Source: a virus
DNA length: 18,430 nucleotides
Virus genome (UHGV): UHGV-0119144
Reading direction: 5' to 3' (one strand)
Part shown: piece by piece, positions 1-18,430 of the stretch
How positions within the stretch are numbered: position 1 is the stretch's first letter
How the letters are laid out: each line of letters opens with the position of its first letter
Position numbers and translations under genes: made by a program
The notes under the pieces: generated by a model
The model's input: only the letters and a program-made list of their open reading frames with translations
What the model was told of the DNA's origin: nothing
Database searches by the model: none

Positions 1-62
1 GAGCACCTCAAAAACACCATCATACACTAAATCAGTAAGTTGGCAGCATCACCTATCACGGC

Positions 63-272
63 ATGCGAATTGAGCTTAAAGAACCAAATGGTAAAGCCCC
101 GACGAAAGAGCAGATCGCCTGGATGCGCAGGCTTAGAGAGGAAGGTTACTACGTCGTTCTTGCGTATGGTGCAGAACAAGCGATAACCGCCATCCTGGAA
201 TACATGAGCCTTAAAAAGGGTGAGGCTATTGAGCATGTATTGAACGGTGACAAGTGTTTGTACGCTACGTGA
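63..272 (+). CDS. Small protein resembling the C-terminal half of a VRR-NUC (PD-(D/E)xK) domain; probably a truncated remnant
   Basis: 69-aa ORF; IELKEPNGKAPTKEQIAWMRRLREEGYYVVLAYGAEQAI matches the E-x-K ... Q..W ... G..V half of VRR-NUC proteins. The N-terminal Asp-containing half is absent and an in-frame stop lies at 36-38. Confidence 0.35.
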   Translation: MRIELKEPNGKAPTKEQIAWMRRLREEGYYVVLAYGAEQAITAILEYMSLKKGEAIEHVLNGDKCLYAT

Positions 273-4275: not shown

Positions 4276-7200
4276 CTATATTTTTCCGCCTACGTCTTTA
4301 AACTTCTCAATAAACGAGACGATTTTCTGGAAAACTGCCTGTTTTTTCGTTTTATATTGCGGATTTAACGGACTAAGTTTTGGTAATGTTTCGTTTAATT
4401 CTGTGCCATTTTCGGTGGCATATTTGCGTTTTAAAGATGTGCGAATATAGCGTTTTGCTGCATCTTCATTGAGATTTTCTTCTTTAATCAACGCTTCTGC
4501 TTCACGTAGCTGTTCGTGTTGAGCAAAGGTAAAGAACGCGTCAATGATGCTGGCTTTGTCTGGTAAATCATCCAGGTTCGTTTGCTGAATAAAATCGACC
4601 ACCAGGCCCTCTTTCGCCCGGTTCCCCAGGCTTGAACGAATTAAGCGTTTGACCTCTTCGATCATTTCGCCCTTGCCTTTATTTTGTCTGTTATGTTCGA
4701 AAATCAGTCCAAGGATATAATCCAGGTTTATTTCCTGAGATTTCAGCAAATCGACCTCAAAAACTACGTCATCCCAGTCAGTGGTTGATTTCTCTTTTTT
4801 CTCAGCTTCTTTCTCACGGCGCTGCCAGTCGCGAATATCGTTATAGGCAGAACGATAATCCTGAATCTTGCGATCAGCAGGGAGACGAATTGTTTGCAAT
4901 TCAGCGAACTTTTCATCATCCACATAATGTTCTGCTTTGAATTTTTCTACCGCAACAGGATCGCTAAGATCGATTTGTTGCAGGGCTTTTAGCGTGGCAA
5001 ATTCATCATAGTTTTGCAGGATGTTCTCGGCACGCAGGTATTCGCCAAACAGTTTAACGAAGTCTTTCTTCTCTTTTTCACTTTCAATACTGGCAGGGTC
5101 AGGGAACCGTTGTTCCAGTTCTGAAACTACTGTCATGAAGCCGCGTTTAGCTTCACCTGTAGCAGCATCAGTAAAGCCTTCCATATACTCTGTATAACTC
5201 TTTTCTAACACCACATTTTTGGTGTTTTTGTCACCAAACAGCGTTATGGCATCAATAGTTGAGCGTTCCAGATCCCGGAAAGTGACGATATTACCGAAGG
5301 TTTTAGTTGCATCATAAATACGGTTGGTGCGGGAAAATGCCTGCATCAGGCCGTGAAAACGCAAGTTTTTATCGACGAATAGCGTGTTCAATGTTGGAGC
5401 ATCGAAGCCGGTTAAAAACATCCCCACGACAATTAGCAGATCGATATCCTGATTTTTAACCCGCTGGGCTAAATCACGATAGTAGTTCTGAAAACCGTTA
5501 CTGTCGGTGCTAAAGTTAGTTTTAAAATGGCTGTTATATTCACGAATTGCAGCGTCCAGAAACTCTTTAGCACTGCTGTCCATTGCGCTGGTATCAAAAG
5601 TTTCATCGGAAATTTCACCAATGGCATTTTGTTCTTCATTGGCGGCAAAGGAGAAGATTGTCGCAATACGCAGCGGTTTATAGGTAGCCGATTTATTAGC
5701 GGCTTCTTCTTGTAACCGTTTAAACGTCGCATAATAGGCTTTCGCGGCATCCACGCTGCTCACTGCCAGCATGGCATTAAAGCCTTTGGAGCCTGGGAAG
5801 GTACGGTGGGTTTTCTGGCGGAAGTTGTTCAGGATATATTGCGTGATTTCCTGAATACGCATGGGATGAAGAAACGCCTGCTGATTTTCAGCCGCACTTA
5901 GTTTTTTCTCGTCAGTTTCTGTCTCTAAAGACTTAAACTGTGGCCGCACATCGTTGTAGTCTACCTTGAATTTGAGCACTTTTTCGTCACGAATCGCATC
6001 GGTAATTACATACGAATGCAATTCACGACCAAATACGCTGGCGGTTGTTTCTGAGCCTAAGGCGTTTTCCGGGAAAATAGGGGTGCCGGTAAAACCAAAC
6101 TGATAATAGCGTTTGAATTTCTTCTTCAGGTTTTTCTGCGCTTCTCCAAACTGGCTGCGGTGGCATTCATCAAATATAAACACCACTTGCTGATTATATA
6201 CAGGCAGGTCGCTTTCTGCTTTCATCAGGTTATTGAGTTTCTGAATAGTGGTGACGATAATTTTGTTATCGTCCTTATCCAGATTTCGTTTAAGACCTGC
6301 GGTATTTTCCGAGCCGTTGACGCTGTCTGGCGAAAAACGCTGGTATTCCTTCATGGTCTGGTAATCGAGGTCTTTCCTGTCGACCACGAAGAAGACTTTA
6401 TCAATAAAGTCCAGTTCTGTTGCCAGACGCGCGGCTTTAAAGCTGGTCAGTGTTTTACCAGAACCGGTAGTGTGCCAGATAAAGCCACCGCTTTCGGGGT
6501 TAGACCAGTTTTTCGCTTTATAGGAGCTGTTGATTTTCCATAAGATTCGTTCGGTGGCGGCAATCTGGTACGGTCGCATCACCAGTAGCGTCTGACTACT
6601 GTCAAAAACGCTGTAGTTCACCAGAACATTCAGCAGAGTATGTTTCTGGAAAAAGGTAGCGGTAAAGTCTTTGAGGTCTTTAATCAGCGTGTTGTCTGAT
6701 TTCGCCCAATTCATGGTGAAGTCAAAACTGTTTTTATCGCGCTTTGTCGTGTTGGCAAAATAACGGGTATCGGTGCCGTTAGAAATGACAAACAGTTGCA
6801 GATACTTAAACAGGGAATTTTCGCTGTTAAAACTCTCTTTACTGTAACGATGTATCTGGTTGAAAGCCTCACGAATCGCCACCCCGCGTTTTTTTAGTTC
6901 GATTTGCACCAGCGGTAAACCATTAACCAGGATCGTGACGTCATAACGGTTAGCATGAGAACCCGTCTGTTCAAACTGCTGGATAATCTGCACCTTATTG
7001 CGCATGAGATTCTTTTTATCTATCAAATAGATGTTCTCAAGACGCTCGTCATCAAAAATAAAGTCGCAAATATAGTCGATATGGATTTTACGGGTCTTAT
7101 CCAGAATGCCATCACTCGGGTTGTCCAGATACTGCTCCGTGAAACGCCGCCATTCGCTGTCATTAAACACCACACCATTGAGGTTCTGAAGCTGTTCCCG

Positions 7201-7392
7201 AACGTTGGCCAGCATCGCCGACTGTGATTTTACGGGTATAAATTCATAGCCCTGATTTCGCAGGTCCTGAATCAGTTCCCGTTCCAGGTCCGATTCACTC
7301 TGATAGCTGTCGCCTGTTGGCTCAGCTTTGATGTACTTATCAAGAACGATAAAGTTATTGGATTCAGCAATGGTGTGTGTCTGATGAGTCAT
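4276..7392 (-). CDS. hsdR: Type I restriction enzyme R subunit (HsdR), type IC / EcoR124 family
   Basis: 1038 aa; PD-(D/E)xK nuclease motif ([18 protein letters not shown]), helicase motifs TGSGKT and FDECH; N-terminus [14 protein letters not shown] as in EcoR124-type HsdR. Confidence 0.95.
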
Positions 7393-7513
7393 AGCGCATC
7401 CTTTGTGCCGTCTGGCAAGGGCCGGAAGGGAGTTAAGGGCGACTTCCGGCGTGTAGAAAATAGTCTATATACTGACCGGATGTTAAGGTGGTCCGGTCTG
7501 TAAAAATGCTCAA

Positions 7514-8727
<1,214 letters not shown>

Positions 8728-8731
<4 letters not shown>

Positions 8732-10290
8732 TTCTGCACCTCGCAGCCTTCAATTTCAGCCACAATCGCATCAATATCTTTACGCAACTGGTCGATTTTG
8801 CTGACCGTGGTTTTCAGCTCTGCATTCAACTCAGCGATATTGATAATTTCGCGAGTATCTTTCGCTTCCACATAGCTGCTTACCGACAGGTTATAGTCAT
8901 TAGCGACAACGGCCTCAAACGTGACAGATTTTGCCAGATGAGCAACATCTTCCTTGCTGGAAAATACCTGCATAATCTGTTCGATATGGGCATCAGTCAG
9001 GATGTTGTTATTAGTCTCTTTTTTGAATAGCTCGCTGGCGTCAATAAACTGAACGTTGGTATCGGTTTTATGTTTAGACAGCACCAGAATATTGACGGCA
9101 ATGGTGGTGCCAAAGAACAGATTCGGTGCCAGTGAAATCACGGTTTCGACATAGTTATTGTCGACCAGATACTGACGGATTTTCTGCTCCGCACCGCCAC
9201 GGTAAAAAATACCCGGGAAGCAAACAATCGCAGCACGACCTTTGGCAGAAAGATAGTTCAGCGCATGTAATACAAACGCAAAGTCAGCTTTGGATTTGGG
9301 GGCCAGAACGCCAGCCGGGGCAAAACGTTCATCGTTAATCAGCGTCGGGTCATCGCTGCCAATCCATTTCACCGAATACGGCGGGTTAGAAACGATGGCA
9401 TCAAACGGTTTTTCATCTCTGAAGTGCGGTTCAGTCAGCGTATTGCCCAGCTTGATATCAAACTTGTCGTAGTTGATGTTGTGCAAAAACATGTTCATAC
9501 GCGCCAGGTTATAGGTCGTATGGTTGATTTCCTGACCAAAAAAACCTTCTTCGATGATATGGTCATCAAACTGTTTTTTAGCCTGCAACAACAGCGAACC
9601 GGAGCCTGCTGCCGGGTCGTAGATTTTGTTAACGTGGGTCTGCCCGTGCATAGCCAGTTGTGCAATCAGCTTAGAGACGTGCTGCGGTGTAAAGAACTCG
9701 CCGCCTGACTTACCGGCATTTGCCGCATAGTTAGAGATCAGGAACTCATAGGCATCACCGAACAGGTCAATCTGATGTTCGTTGAAGTCACCAAGTTTTA
9801 ACCCTTCAACCCCTTTCAGAACCGCAGCCAGGCGGGCATTTTTATCTTTAACGGTGTTACCCAGGCGGTTACTGGTGGTATCGAAATCAGCAAACAAACC
9901 TTTGATGTCTGCTTCTGAAGGGTAGCCGTAAGCAGAACTTTCGATAGCAACGAAGATGCTGTTTAAATCTGCGTTCAGTCTGTCATTGGTATTTGCTTTC
10001 GCAGCTACGTTGCAGAAAAGCTGACTTGGGTAGATGAAGTAGCCTTTGGTTTTGATGGCATCGTCTTTAATGTCATCAGTAATTACGCTGTCATCCAGTT
10101 TCGCATAACAGATGCTGTCATCACCGGCTTCAATATAGCTGGAAAAATTTTCGCTGATAAAACGGTAGAAAAGCGCGCCCAGAACGTATTGCTTAAAATC
10201 CCATCCATCGACCGAACCTCTGACATCGTTAGCAATTTGCCAGATTTGACGATGAAGCTCTGCACGTTGTTGAATACTTGTCATTTTCAT
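8728..10290 (-). CDS. hsdM: Type I N6-adenine DNA methyltransferase subunit (HsdM), type IC
   Basis: 520 aa; SAM-binding motif [10 protein letters not shown] and catalytic NPPY. Confidence 0.95.
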
Positions 10291-12411: not shown

Positions 12412-12726
12412 ATGTTACTTAACTGGCAGGGACGCCACTTCATGGAAATAAATCACTCACGAATAACATCGTACGAGATTGCGAATTACATGATCCGCAC
12501 TAAATCTCTTCTATCAGCGAAAGAACTCGCAGCAATTCTTGAAAAGGAATACCCGCATCTGGATGTCGATAAGCGCGATGTTTATCTGCGCTTAAAAGCT
12601 ATCGCTGTGTCTAAGTATTCGTCTGTTTTGATTGATGACAGTACGAACGAAAGCGTGAAAATAACTGGTCAGTGCTGGAAGCAGCTGAATTCATCGAGGC
12701 GCATGGCGGGAAAGTGCCGCCCCTGA
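12412..12726 (+). CDS. Hypothetical protein (alternative start ATG 12442); possible late-activator (lpa-position) gene
   Basis: ORF downstream of an operator; no domain recognised; overlaps the next ORF by 55 nt. Confidence 0.3.
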
Positions 12727-13043
12727 TGCTGGAGCAAATCAAAGCCGATCTGCGTGCTCCTAAGACCAATACCGATGATGAGGAAAGGCAAACAGCCGTC
12801 GGTGGCCCTTCTCTTGAAGATCTGGACAAAGTTGCGCGAGAACGGGCCGCCAACCGCCGCGCCGATGCCGCATTGTGGATTGAGCAGCGTAGGGAAGAAA
12901 TCGCCGATATCGTTGATACAGGCGGTTATGGAGATGTTGATACTGAAGGTGTATCAAACGACCCATGGCTGGAACAAGACCTGGACGAAGACGAGGAGGA
13001 AGACGAAGAAGTTACCCGCAAGCTATACGGGGATGATGATTAA
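12672..13043 (+). CDS. Acidic protein translationally coupled to terminase large subunit (possible small-subunit remnant)
   Basis: GTG start; C-terminus [12 protein letters not shown]...DDD; stop overlaps the ATG of the next gene (TAATG). No cluster of TGATCA/G pac hexamers seen in 12300-13100. Confidence 0.35.
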
Positions 13044-14956
13044 TGGCCAGAAGTTGCGTAACGGATCCACGTTGGCGCGAGCTGGTGGCGCTATATCGTT
13101 ATGACTGGATTGCGGCCGCTGATGTTTTGTTCGGCAAAACACCTACCTGGCAGCAGGATCTGATTATTGAGTCTGTGCAGGAACAGGGTAGCAAGACATC
13201 TGTTTCGTCTGGTCACGGTACCGGGAAATCAGACATGACTTCTATCATGATCATGTTGTTCATAATCATGTATCCCGGTGCCCGCGCCATTATCGTTGCG
13301 AACAAAATTCAGCAGGTAATGACCGGTATATTCAAGTACATCAAGATAAACTGGGCTACTGCCACCAGCCGTTTTCCATGGCTTGCTGATTATTTTGTTC
13401 TGACAGAAACCGCTTTCTATGAGGTTACTGGTTGGATTTGCCCCTATATTTCCAGACACCTGTTATCACTTAACCCATTACTGGCTTGCTGCCGTAGATA
13501 TTCCCGTGGCGAGCGATAACCCAGTGCACTATGCGGATGCCATTCGTTATAATGCTCGAACGCCTCTGCAAGGTTCTTTGCTGCCGTTAACCCGTCTGGT
13601 TTGGGCATGACACTGATGTAGTCACGCTTTATCGTTTTCACGAAGCTCTCTGCTATGCCGTTACTCTCCGGACTCCGCACCGCCGTGCTCTTCGGTTCAA
13701 GCCCCAACATCCGGGCAAACTGCCGTGTTTCATTAGCCCGGTAGCATGAACCATTATCCGTCAGCCACTCTACTGGAGACGCCGGAAGCTCGTTGCCGAA
13801 GCGGCGTTCCACCGCTCCCAGCATGACGTCCTGTACTGTTTCACTGTTGAAGCCGCCCGTAGTGACCGCCCAGTGCAGTGCCTCACGGTCACAGCAGTCC
13901 AGCGCGAACGTGACTCGCAGTTTTTCTCCGTTATCACAGCGGAACTCGAACCCGTCAGAGCACCATCGCTGATTACTTTCTTTCACAGCCACTCTGCCTG
14001 TATGTGCCCGTTTCGATGGCGGTACAGCAGGTTTTCGCTCAAGCAACAGCGCATTCTGGCGCATGATCCGGTAAACACGTTTGGCATTGATCGCAGGCAT
14101 ACCATCAAGTTCTGCCTGTCTGCGAAGCAGCGCCCATAACAGTGAGGAATCACCGCTGGTAACGTCAGAATTTATCAAAATGAAGCTGGCGGAGTACGGC
14201 GGGCGTGATAACCCTATGTACATGATTAAGGTACGCGGCCTATTCCCTAAATTACAGGACGGCTTCCTTCTTGGACGTGATGAGGTTGAACGTGCGACGC
14301 GGCGGAAAGTCAAGATTGCCAAAGGATGGGGCTGGCTTGCATGTGTGGACGTTGCTGGTGGTACAGGACGGGATAAGTCCTTTATCAATATCATGATGGT
14401 GTCCGGCCAGCGAAATAAACGCCGTGTAATCAACTATCGAATGCTGGAATACACAGACGTTACAGAAACGCAGCTTGCCGCCAAAATTTTCGCAGAATGT
14501 AATCCTGAGCGATTCCCCAATATCACCATAGCGATAGACGGCGATGGCCTGGGTAAAGCAACGGCGGATCTGATGTACGAGTATTATGGTATTACCGTAC
14601 AGCGTATACGCTGGGGTAAAAAGATGCATAGCCGTGAAGATAAGAGCCTGTACTTTGATAAACGTGCTTATGCCAACGTTCAAGCCGCAGAGGCCGTAAA
14701 ATCTGGTCGTATGAGACTGGATAAGGGTAATGAAACTATTGAGGAAGCGTCGAAAATCCCTGTAGGGATTAACTCCGCAGGTCAATGGAAGGTGATGAGT
14801 AAGGAGGATATGAAGAAAAAACTCAACCTGCACTCACCAGACCATTGGGATACATATTGTTTCGCTATGCTGGCGGATTATGTTCCCCAGGACGAAGTGC
14901 TTAGCGTCGAAGACGAAGCGCAGGTTGATGAAGCTCTGGCATGGCTTAATGAATAA
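13043..14956 (+). pseudogene. Terminase large subunit (PacB-like) interrupted by an IS2 fragment
   Basis: N-terminal 130 codons (13043-13432) carry a deviant Walker A (SSGHGTGKS); C-terminal part (about 14139-14956) is terminase-like. The two parts are separated by 706 bp of IS2 and are not joinable in frame. Confidence 0.55.
13433..14138 (-). mobile_element. insD: IS2 (IS3 family) 3' fragment: right terminal region plus C-terminal ~230 codons of insD
   Basis: Minus-strand translation 13444-14136 matches IS2 InsD from [28 protein letters not shown] to NRCLEI; IS2 terminus TGGATTTGCCCCTATATTTCCAGACACCTG at 13433. insC and the left end are absent. Confidence 0.88.
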
Positions 14957-14959
14957 ACA

Positions 14960-14976
14960 CTTGCTCTAATAAATTG
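14960..14976 (+). promoter_or_regulatory. P1 C1 operator-like site (15/17), Op51-like position upstream of immI
   Basis: cttgctctaataaattg, 4 nt after the terminase stop. Confidence 0.55.
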
Positions 14977-15107
14977 TGTTTTTTGACTGCCGATGTTACA
15001 TTGAACCTGACCTCTTGCGCCTTGAGGCATTTTCGGTTTATGCTTATCAGGCACCTCATTAAAACGGGTGCCGGGATTGAGACCCCGGATAATGTCAAAG
15101 GCGACAC

Positions 15108-15130
15108 AGACGCCGAAAGCGTCTTTTTTT
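15108..15130 (+). terminator. Rho-independent terminator / attenuator inside the immI leader
   Basis: Stem agacgc / gcgtct with loop cgaaa, followed by a T7 run. Confidence 0.6.
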
Positions 15131-15315
15131 GTGTCATGCCATCGCACAGCCATACGTAGCGTTTAGCTCCGAAATCAATGGTAGTGCTGGCTGGGCTGCC
15201 GAAAGGCAGGCCGGTTCCCTTTGACGCCGGTAGTCTCAACCCAGTCAGTGCTACCGCCATTGAGATTGAGACCTCACGCGGTAGCTCCTTAACTTAGTCA
15301 AAGGAGGCTGCCATT

Positions 15316-15537
15316 ATGGCTACTGTCCCTACCCCAATTCATCCTGAATTTATCTGGCGCTTTTACTCCTGCCAAAAACGTCACTATCACTTCGTTATTG
15401 CACCGACAGAAGATGAGGCCCATTCTCAGCTTCCTGACGCTCCCTGCATTTTCTCTGCCCGCTTTTCAACCGATTTGCGCAATTCTCTCAGTTACTGGTG
15501 CCTCCCTGTTAACGCTTCTGCTCAGGAGGGACTATGA
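15316..15537 (+). CDS. Icd-like small protein (73 aa), translationally coupled to ant
   Basis: AAGGAGG RBS; stop overlaps the ant start (ATGA); size and position match P1 icd. Sequence identity not confirmed from memory. Confidence 0.45.
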   Translation: MATVPTPIHPEFIWRFYSCQKRHYHFVIAPTEDEAHSQLPDAPCIFSARFSTDLRNSLSYWCLPVNASAQEGL

Positions 15538-16648
15538 GAACGTCATTAGTTACCCGTGAAGAGATGATCGAGGCAATTGAACAGCACACTGCCTGTATCA
15601 GTACTAGGGATATACCGGGCGTTATTGCCAACTACTTCATGATCACCAAACAACTTTACCGGAGAAAGGACAAGAACGCAGTTCACCGCATCCTGCTGTC
15701 TGATATCCGCGAATACCTGCTCGAACAGGGGCATCTGAATTACGCAACCGTCGCAGCCGAAGCACGCAAGGAGGCACACAGAATGAAAGCTACTAACGTT
15801 AAATCAGAAAAAGTTCATGCACCTTCAGTTCAGGAATCAGAGCTGGTGGTTGTTCAAAATCAGTCGGATGAAATTCCCGTTCTGGAGTGGCAGGGAGTGC
15901 GTGTCGTAACAACCGAAACTCTTGCTAAGGGGTATGGTACAGAAGCGATTCGCATTCGCCAGAATCATCATGAGAACAAAGTACGCTTTGTTGAAGCGAA
16001 GCACTTTTTCAAGGTTATTGGCGATGAGCTGAAAAATTTGCGGGTAGCTTTAAACTACTCACAAAATCCAGTCTCCCCCAAAGCGCGCTCTCTCATCCTC
16101 TGGACAGAACGAGGAGCTGCCCGTCACGCTAAAATGCTCGAAACCGATCAGGCATGGGCATTCTTTGAAAAACTGGAAGACAGCTACTTCCGACAAAAAG
16201 AACAGCAACCGGTCGCAATCCCCCAGACGCTTCCAGAAGCTCTGCGCCTGGCTGCCGAGTTAGCTGAACAAAAGCAACTTCTGGAACAGAAAGCCCACCA
16301 GCTAAATCAGCAGCTGGTGGCTGCCGCTTCTAAAGTCGATTTTGCCGACCGGGTATCAGTAGCTAAAGGGATCCTGATTGGGAATTTTGCAAAGGTCGTT
16401 GGACTTAAACAAAATGCGCTGTTTGCCTAGTTACGGGAGAACGGCATTCTGATAGCGTCCGGAGGCCGTAAAAATGTACCGTTCCAGCAGTACATCAACG
16501 CGGGTATTTCACGGTGAAAGAAGTGGTGCTGGATGATGAAGATGGCTACCAGATACGGTTGACGCCTCAATTAACGGGTAAAGGCCAGCAGTGGTTGACG
16601 CGTAAACTGCTCGATGCTGGCTTGTTAAAACCGGTGGCGGCTGAATAA
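15534..16648 (+). pseudogene. ant: Antirepressor (AntA/Bro-N-like core plus KilAC-type C-terminus) with nonsense and frameshift lesions
   Basis: Open to TAG at 16428-16430, sitting where KilAC proteins have an aromatic residue (LFA*LRENG). The downstream KilAC-like sequence continues in frame as ILIASGGRKNVPFQQYINAG, then shifts by one frame near 16502 into GYFTVKEVVLDDEDGYQIRLTPQLTGKGQQWLTRKLL. Confidence 0.6.
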
Positions 16649-16655
16649 TGGAAGA

Positions 16656-16686
16656 ATGCCCGGTTGATGCCGGGCATAATTTATTG
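16656..16686. terminator. Hairpin between convergent ant and c1; candidate bidirectional terminator
   Basis: Stem atgcccgg / ccgggcat with loop ttgatg, followed by AATTTATT. Confidence 0.45.
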
Positions 16687-17532
16687 CGCGCTTTCGGGGT
16701 TGTCGTTTACTGGCTGCCCCTTCTTGGTTTTACGGCTGCGCGTAACTGATGCGGCTGACTTAACCTTTTTCTCTTCGCGAGTGATGGCAATTTGTTTTTT
16801 TACATTTTCAATATCTGCCAGGCGATATATTTTTGCTTGCGGCCAGCGGTCGCAGATGATCGGTTCTATGGAGTCATAAAGGCTAAATTTTGCTTTTTCG
16901 AATTCACCGTTGATGATAATTCCATCACGGAGAGTTTCATCGCAGATAAACACGCCACACAGTGGCACATGGTAACTAACTGATTTACCATCATTGTAGT
17001 TAGGGCTACTGGAAATGTAGTGGACGCGCAGCATTGTTTCGCTAAAGCCGTGTACGCGCATACGGAATTTTTCATCCTCCGGGTACTGCTTCATTAGCTC
17101 TTTTGTTGCTTCCAGGTTCTCTATGTATTTCGCACTGTGCTCATTGATCCCCGCGCTTTTTTGGATGCGAATGTCCTTATCAATCAGATGAATAATGCGG
17201 CCAGCGGTCATGTTGACGCTGTTCACAGCTTCTGTCTGATAAGTTGTAACCTTACGCACACCGCGAAGGATGTTAGGCACTGGATATAAAATAGTCTTTG
17301 GGATATTGAGGTCTGGGTACTGTTCCAGTTCCCGCGCCATTAAAGTCCATTTATCAATTTCAGCCTGAATGCTGTCAGTTTCTTTGAACGGTAGAACGAC
17401 AACCGGGCGTACAGGACGACCGTCGCTGGCTGTATCAACGTGTTGGGCGCGTGCAACAGCTTTTTTTAGAAAGAGATCCCTGAAGCTGACGAACTCCTGG
17501 TACAGTTGTTCGCCGTAGACATAATTTATCAT
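16681..17532 (-). CDS. c1: P1 C1 repressor of lysis
   Basis: 283 aa, MINYVYGEQLYQEFVSFRDLFLKKAVARAQHV...; strong RBS GGAGGAGG; TATAAT in the upstream intergenic region. Confidence 0.95.
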   Translation of the reverse strand: MINYVYGEQLYQEFVSFRDLFLKKAVARAQHVDTASDGRPVRPVVVLPFKETDSIQAEIDKWTLMARELEQYPDLNIPKTILYPVPNILRGVRKVTTYQTEAVNSVNMTAGRIIHLIDKDIRIQKSAGINEHSAKYIENLEATKELMKQYPEDEKFRMRVHGFSETMLRVHYISSSPNYNDGKSVSYHVPLCGVFICDETLRDGIIINGEFEKAKFSLYDSIEPIICDRWPQAKIYRLADIENVKKQIAITREEKKVKSAASVTRSRKTKKGQPVNDNPESAQ

Positions 17533-17626
17533 TGATCCTCCTCCAGAATTGACATGGTCAATAACGCCCGGCTGAGAAAACCGGTCATTACTGACCTATA
17601 TTATAGAGGGATCAAACGAAAATAAT

Positions 17627-17643
17627 AGATTTATTAGTGCATT
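17627..17643 (-). promoter_or_regulatory. C1 operator-like site (14/17) in the coi-c1 intergenic region (Op99-like)
   Basis: Reverse complement aatgcactaataaatct; an adjacent overlapping partial repeat follows. Confidence 0.5.
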
Positions 17644-17852
17644 TATTGTGAGTCTAACTGGTTAGTTGCCATGAGATATTCGATTGTGTCAGTGAGGTCA
17701 TCCAGGTCGTCTTGGGTGATGCGGTACTCCTGATTGGATATCTTTGAGTAGTGTTCAGCAATGGCGCGGGCTGCGTCGGTTTCGGCAGGGTCTACAGATA
17801 AAGCGTTAGAGCAATGTCTAACGTCGTCGATGGTTGGTTGAATGAAAGCCAT
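17643..17852 (-). CDS. coi: Coi, C1 inactivator
   Basis: 69 aa, MAFIQPTIDDVRHCSNALSVDPAETDAARAIAEHYSKISNQEYRITQDDLDD; directly upstream of c1 on the same strand. Confidence 0.9.
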   Translation of the reverse strand: MAFIQPTIDDVRHCSNALSVDPAETDAARAIAEHYSKISNQEYRITQDDLDDLTDTIEYLMATNQLDSQ

Positions 17853-17971
17853 AATTATGCCTCACTGTATTGACAACACAGAGCCTGAAGCTCTGACCTA
17901 CTGTTTCACCCATGATCCATGCTGGGGTAATCTAACAACATTGCGCTGTGTGTAAGATGAGCAATGCATAG

Positions 17972-18430
<459 letters not shown>

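Follow-up and report, generated by a model that had tools for sequence, protein, structure and literature searches.

An ISKpn26 insertion in imcA of P1-like phage-plasmids and its predicted effect on expression of coi

The immC region of bacteriophage P1 (AF234172) encodes C1, the primary repressor of lytic functions, and Coi, which inactivates C1. A LexA site overlaps a coi promoter, and Coi made during the SOS response inactivates C1 (PMC4713147). P1-like phage-plasmids carry ESBL and other resistance genes, and inducibility decides how such genes move. Here we describe an immC region interrupted by an insertion sequence in a viral genome (UHGV-0119144), of which the whole 18,430-nucleotide stretch that was analysed is referred to as the window.

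Much of the P1 immC organization is retained in this window. It contains c1 with its autoregulated Pc1/Oc1ab, and coi lies directly upstream of c1, overlapping imcB and with Oc1c inside. Gene order, Oc1ab, Oc1c and Pc1 are shared with P1, and the two proteins are nearly unchanged, with 97% identity for Coi (67 of 69 residues) and 99% for C1 (281 of 283 residues of P1 C1.100). What the window lacks is a contiguous imcA-imcB-coi arrangement with P1coi/Oc1d and the LexA-controlled P2coi. Relative to P1, imcA is interrupted, the upstream promoters and operators have moved at least 1.2 kb away, and the c1 leader sequence has been replaced. Features of the window, together with the P1 control sites that bear on coi, are collected in Table 1.

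Table 1. Features of the window and the P1 control sites of coi. Coordinates are those of the window unless P1 is given.
Feature	Coordinates	Strand	Description	Basis
hsdR	4276-7392	-		
hsdS	7514-8731	-		
hsdM	8728-10290	-		
lpa-pacA fusion	12412-13431		lpa codon 78 (of 150) to 3' pacA; join 12644/12642	comparison with P1
IS2 fragment in pacB	~13432-14138		707 bp; ~277 bp of pacB lost	comparison with P1
ant/roi-like gene	15534-16649		KilAC-domain antirepressor, pseudogene; nonsense codon 16428-16430 and 1-bp deletion near 16501	
c1	16681..17532	-	primary repressor of lytic functions, 283 aa, intact	NF041318, 611.6 bits (cut-off 500)
Pc1	17600..17629	-	promoter; -10 TATAAT 17605-17600, -35 17629-17624	P1 annotation transfer
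Oc1ab	17616..17643	-	bivalent C1 operator overlapping Pc1	identical to P1 over the operator
coi	17643..17852	-	C1 inactivator, 69 aa, intact	P1 Coi alignment; Coi annotated at the same position in RCS47, P1 and JL22
Oc1c (Op99c)	17799..17815	-	C1 operator inside coi/imcB overlap	identical to P1
imcB	17818..17913	-	31 aa, intact	ORF list; P1 and RCS47 annotation
imcA 3' remnant	17932..17971	-	last 40 nt of the 114-nt gene	P1 alignment; RCS47 'imcA part 2'
ATAG	17968..17971	.	left copy of 4-bp target-site duplication	deduced from relatives
ISKpn26 (IS5 family)	17972..18430	+	first 459 bp; element runs past window end	identity to PGAP-named copies
Transposase gene	18040..18430	+	first 130 codons; direction away from coi	NF033581 match; CDS coordinates from pE2 and H15 plasmid A
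P1coi (former P99d)	P1 94634-94663		sigma-70 promoter with C1 operator Oc1d	P1 annotation
P2coi	P1 nt 41-68		across record origin	P1 annotation, prediction
LexA site	P1 nt 46-65		overlaps P2coi, past loxP	P1 annotation, prediction

The earlier note had placed an IS5 at the end of the window, with a left inverted repeat starting at 17972 and 119 bp separating it from the coi start. The position was borne out: the 16-bp transposase-proximal terminal repeat GGAAGGTGCGAACAAG is read at 17972-17987 (plus strand) and, with the coi ATG at 17852-17850 on the minus strand, the intervening segment 17853-17971 is exactly 119 bp long. The repeat conforms to the pattern of about 16 bp, GGAAGGTGCGAA(C/T)AAG, and the right repeat, cttattcgcaccttcc, was read in relatives. 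The 130 N-terminal amino acids of the encoded transposase matched NF033581, the IS5 family transposase profile (E 3.9e-37, profile positions 1-107), with a score of 128 bits that falls below the 140-bit whole-protein cut-off because just 107 of the 285 profile positions lie in the window; the full coding sequence in relatives with the whole element specifies 326 amino acids. Membership in the IS5 family therefore stood, while the assignment to IS5 itself did not. Positions 17972-18430 share 99.8-100% identity with ISKpn26 copies in more than 3000 plasmid records, mostly from Klebsiella, which PGAP labels 'IS5-like element ISKpn26 family'; identity of the same 459 bp to classic IS5 (phage 434 nmpC::IS5) is just 90.2%. 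The E value and this near-identity to known copies together indicate that the match is not due to chance. Judged by these identities, the element is ISKpn26, a member of the IS5 family and not IS5 proper.

In order to locate the insertion, the P1 annotation was transferred to the window through a gap-free alignment (offset +15899). Left of the IS, 572 bp match P1 with 94.4% identity, and homology stops at P1 nt 94521, within imcA (94482-94595). The IS thus lies inside imcA, the first small ORF of imcA-imcB-coi, and splits this gene of 37 codons (114 nt) at codon 25-26, leaving imcB undamaged, which agrees with the earlier proposal that an immC gene upstream of coi had been disrupted. That note also described the site as the edge of immC, and it took an absence of further expected immC sequence at this position to speak against its proposal. 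The P1 map indicates otherwise, which leaves the proposal standing: past the insertion point lie the rest of imcA, P1coi/Oc1d, Oc1e, P4cre, loxP and then P2coi/LexA, so that the site falls in the middle of the imcA-imcB-coi(-c1) unit.

The right end of the IS and the second copy of its 4-bp duplication, which the earlier note expected beyond the window, were both read from relatives. Plasmids pE2 (NZ_CP086663) and H15 plasmid A (NZ_CP010179) have the same left junction and a complete, solo element of 1197 bp, in which the element end cttattcgcaccttcc is followed by ATAGctgtaatgcc, P1coi, loxP, cra and cre. The junctions of pE2 and RCS47 read gcaATAG before the IS and ATAGctgtaat after it, and the empty site in JL22 and P1 is gcaATAGctgtaat. 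In phage JL22 the site is uninterrupted, with 99.7% identity to the window across the 572 bp. From the junctions in pE2 and H15 plasmid A and the empty site in JL22, the insertion in pE2, H15 plasmid A and RCS47 is a simple transposition with duplication of ATAG and no loss of flanking DNA. The closest relative of the window is H15 plasmid A (99.98% identity, window 14137-18430). The window could hold either a solo copy or the left arm of a dms composite bounded by ISKpn26 copies, like the one in RCS47. Elsewhere in the window, a type I restriction-modification system occupies the minus strand at 4276-10290, upstream of phd-doc; its hsdS region is the most divergent part relative to relatives, with match gaps at about 7650-8660.

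The replaced c1 leader lies between Pc1 and the c1 start (17552-17601, minus strand), where about 45 bp differ from P1. A long hairpin is equivalent in both, at -27 kcal/mol (z -4.35) in the window and -33.5 kcal/mol (z -4.55) in P1; structure is kept while sequence is replaced. Full folding of the hairpin may occur only in transcripts from upstream promoters, because its 5' arm overlaps the expected Pc1 start.

The junction is common among P1-like elements. In PLSDB, the immC stretch was found in 702 plasmids, uninterrupted in 569 and with the identical ISKpn26 junction in 84. Among 5426 complete E. coli genomes, 698 (about 13%) carry the stretch, which is uninterrupted in 565 and bears the junction in 67. 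Approximately one tenth of P1-like elements therefore have exactly this insertion. Their hosts include E. coli, E. marmotae and Cronobacter, with human, poultry, gull and sheep sources. A derived class of about 50 further PLSDB plasmids, a number extrapolated from evenly spaced rows, has IS1 in place of the left part of ISKpn26 and the 4-bp flank (ATAG). Two records in which homology ends 4 bp earlier, NZ_LR130553 (2789-4525) and NZ_CP063469, were considered as independent insertions at a hot spot and rejected, since the ISKpn26 right end and ATAG persist in them. The DNA past IS1 in NZ_CP063469 is unrelated (it holds an HNH endonuclease gene), which points to an IS1-mediated rearrangement. 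Plasmid pHS30-1 (NZ_CP147010, 1791-2579) has an independent IS1B in imcA, flanked by a 9-bp duplication, GCCGTTGTA, on a backbone without ISKpn26 and 20 bp from the ISKpn26 site; a hot spot in imcA is not established by this single case.

By the transferred annotation, the insertion cuts imcB-coi off from both annotated promoters, P1coi and P2coi, as it falls mid-unit in imcA-imcB-coi(-c1), and read-through into c1 is severed with it. The IS leaves no native coi promoter on its coi side. About 1.2 kb or more of foreign sequence, in antisense orientation to the transposase gene, separates imcB-coi from their sole two annotated promoters. On the promoter side, the imcA frame continues for 26 native codons, then reads GRCE and stops within the terminal repeat, 5 codons into the IS, so that any transcript running from P1coi or P2coi towards imcB-coi would include more than 1.1 kb that is not translated. 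Such a transcript would meet, about 100 nt in from the right end of the IS, a terminator-like hairpin on the coi-sense strand. Rho-dependent polarity is the textbook expectation for a long untranslated RNA, and it is thus expected here. A scan for LexA-box-like sites found none in window 17400-18430. Additionally, a consensus scan, which also misses the genuine Pc1, found no coi-facing promoter-like site scoring at least 9/12 in the IS or at the junction; the best candidate, 8/12 with a TG, is native sequence also present in P1 itself.

From this arrangement we infer a polar effect. Expression of coi would be silenced or strongly reduced, and neither C1 loss nor an SOS response would induce it any longer; c1 would still be expressed from the autoregulated Pc1/Oc1ab. 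The plasmid (lysogenic) state of the element would thereby become more secure. Since c1 retains Pc1/Oc1ab, repressor supply should be intact and maintenance is more likely preserved; the earlier note had suggested that lysogeny maintenance may be changed. This loss of C1 and SOS control over coi is favored by the alignment, in which Pc1/Oc1ab and Oc1c do not differ from P1, and by a lineage that is widespread and stably maintained (84 PLSDB plasmids, 67 complete E. coli genomes). However, transcription through the IS, or from a weak outward promoter, may be compatible with the consensus scans, and P2coi and its LexA site are themselves annotation predictions. On balance we consider polar silencing of coi, with c1 unaffected and the plasmid state reinforced, to be somewhat probable.

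Alternatively, the insertion could be a neutral scar of cargo acquisition, left by a single ISKpn26 hop or as the remnant of an ISKpn26-dms-ISKpn26 structure, with no meaningful effect on the choice between lysis and lysogeny. The argument is that no effect would follow because coi is dispensable and control is exerted mainly via c1/Pc1, lxc and immI (c4-icd-ant). RCS47 shows both junctions around an 8.4-kb dms composite, pE2 has dms genes elsewhere and mostly resistance cargo, and the sequences of coi, imcB and c1 are unchanged, all of which would fit such a scar. Against it, every annotated coi promoter is removed, so that coi expression could hardly remain quite the same. The state of the phage genes in the window and in other elements with the junction also bears on this alternative.

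An intact lpa, a pac site and intact pacA/pacB, the hallmarks of a functional P1-like phage-plasmid, are absent from the window. The lpa-pacA fusion lacks P1 nt 90224-91320, a deletion common to the window and H15 plasmid A that takes away the remainder of lpa and, of pacA, the 5' two-thirds, together with the late promoter LPpac and the pac cleavage site. Plasmid pRHB14-C22_4 has a complete IS2 at another position in pacB, 117 bp away from that of the fragment in the window; the two differing positions indicate that IS2 struck pacB more than once. Between pacB and c1, this lineage has an ash-icd-ant module where P1 has nothing, and the intact counterpart of the ant pseudogene in RCS47 and JL22 encodes 371 amino acids. 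The element in the window is thus already defective for late gene activation and packaging.

Similar losses were seen in other elements with the junction. Intact lpa-pacAB next to c1 is absent in six of them (H15 plasmid A, pE2, pCrono684-2, pEC21Z063-100K, p276M-CTX-M-55 and phi456), and at least three different lesions account for the losses among junction-bearing elements. Plasmid pE2 consists mostly of resistance and metabolic cargo. We searched with a 7.3-kb query from RCS47 extending from lpa through the IS. Twelve plasmids cover at least 94% of it, several of them by false joins to an IS copy elsewhere, and a truly contiguous, complete lpa-pacAB-ant-c1 block is present in about 4-5 of the 84 junction-bearing plasmids. 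Among the matches listed, 2 of 30 junction-bearers belong to the 12 high-coverage plasmids, and of P1-like plasmids overall 559 of 687 retain at least 80% of lpa-pacAB; these figures are bounds plus sampling, and the comparison ignores shared ancestry.

The few plasmids with a complete block are consistent with a neutral scar, yet intact lpa-pacAB is strongly depleted in junction-bearers relative to P1-like plasmids overall, which also counts in favor of polar silencing of coi. NZ_CP029181 and NZ_CP073970 are examples of carriers that are otherwise intact. This depletion suggests a lineage drifting from phage-plasmid to plasmid, and does not imply the IS as the cause of decay; it may simply reflect an IS-rich, cargo-laden sublineage. 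Overall, we regard a scar without regulatory effect as doubtful, though it merits consideration beside polar silencing of coi.

A third reading, in the direction suggested by the earlier note, is that the IS activates coi. IS5 activates neighboring operons, such as bgl, glpFK and flhDC, in a setting where its transposase-distal end (IHF/bent DNA) lies next to an intact but silent promoter. By analogy, outward transcription from the IS would give low, constitutive coi expression independent of C1 and LexA, with more derepression and spontaneous induction. With ISKpn26 upstream of rmpADC, promoter activity in a reporter was about 30% higher (PMC11363291), a result that also counts against polar silencing of coi. 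Furthermore, phi456, which bears the same junction, was published as a spontaneously induced phage (PMC10967188). Its induction rate was reported to be about 1e-5 (PMC10967188), and its deposited genome (OR339795.1) gave no megablast match to lpa-pacA-pacB, so that it weighs little for activation. In this genome, an IS1 lies between a truncated pdcB and a truncated ant. The phi456 genome is hard to reconcile with autonomous plaque formation, and for the missing lpa/pacAB match and the IS1 between truncated pdcB and ant we rejected it as a demonstration that a viable phage can carry the insertion. Activation of coi is quite improbable in our assessment, given that the transposase-proximal end faces coi and not the distal end known from IS5 activation, that the promoter scan described above found no outward site reaching its threshold, that C1 at Oc1c within coi would, by the annotation, still block incoming transcription in a lysogen, and that an allele giving constitutive Coi, which should destabilize the plasmid state, would hardly be as widespread and stable as this one.

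If Coi-mediated induction is indeed blocked, as polar silencing of coi would predict, the junction would be a simple sequence marker of elements locked in the plasmid state. One could further propose that imcA::ISKpn26 was a step of 'plasmidisation', in which the uncoupling of Coi led to poor inducibility, then to relaxed selection on lytic genes, and finally to independent losses of lpa/pacAB and to plasmids carrying resistance cargo. We consider this sequence of events unlikely. The insertion itself is already known, being deposited and annotated in public records including RCS47, and it is an ordinary IS insertion. In a limited survey of published papers on P1-like plasmids, the insertion was not mentioned. 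The idea that the allele marks non-inducible, decaying P1-like plasmids is the sole part that goes past routine annotation.

The locus can be compared with several described systems. RCS47 (FO818745 / NC_042128) has the same left junction (99.5% over 1031 bp), the same orientation and ATAG at its outer right junction, and its GenBank annotation lists 'imcA part 2', 'insH IS5D' and, past the second IS copy, 'imcA part 1'. It differs in that two direct ISKpn26 copies, the left one truncated by IS1, enclose IS1, dmsABC, torD and a ferredoxin gene in the 8.4-kb composite, and in that RCS47 retains lpa-pacAB, which the element in the window does not. The sequenced P1 reference strain likewise carries an IS5-family element in a P1-type genome, mod749::IS5, but there the locus is mod. 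ISKpn26 is best known for disrupting mgrB, wcaJ and rmpA in Klebsiella, and the element described here has the same 16-bp repeats and, as read in relatives, the same 1197-bp length and 4-bp duplication; the host replicon in this case is an E. coli P1-like plasmid. The target preference of IS5 is YTAR, from which the duplicated target ATAG differs at the first base. Finally, the activation of bgl, glpFK and flhDC likewise involves an IS5-family element within or next to a regulatory region, or ahead of an operon, whereas here the genes are split from their promoters and the opposite end of the IS faces coi.
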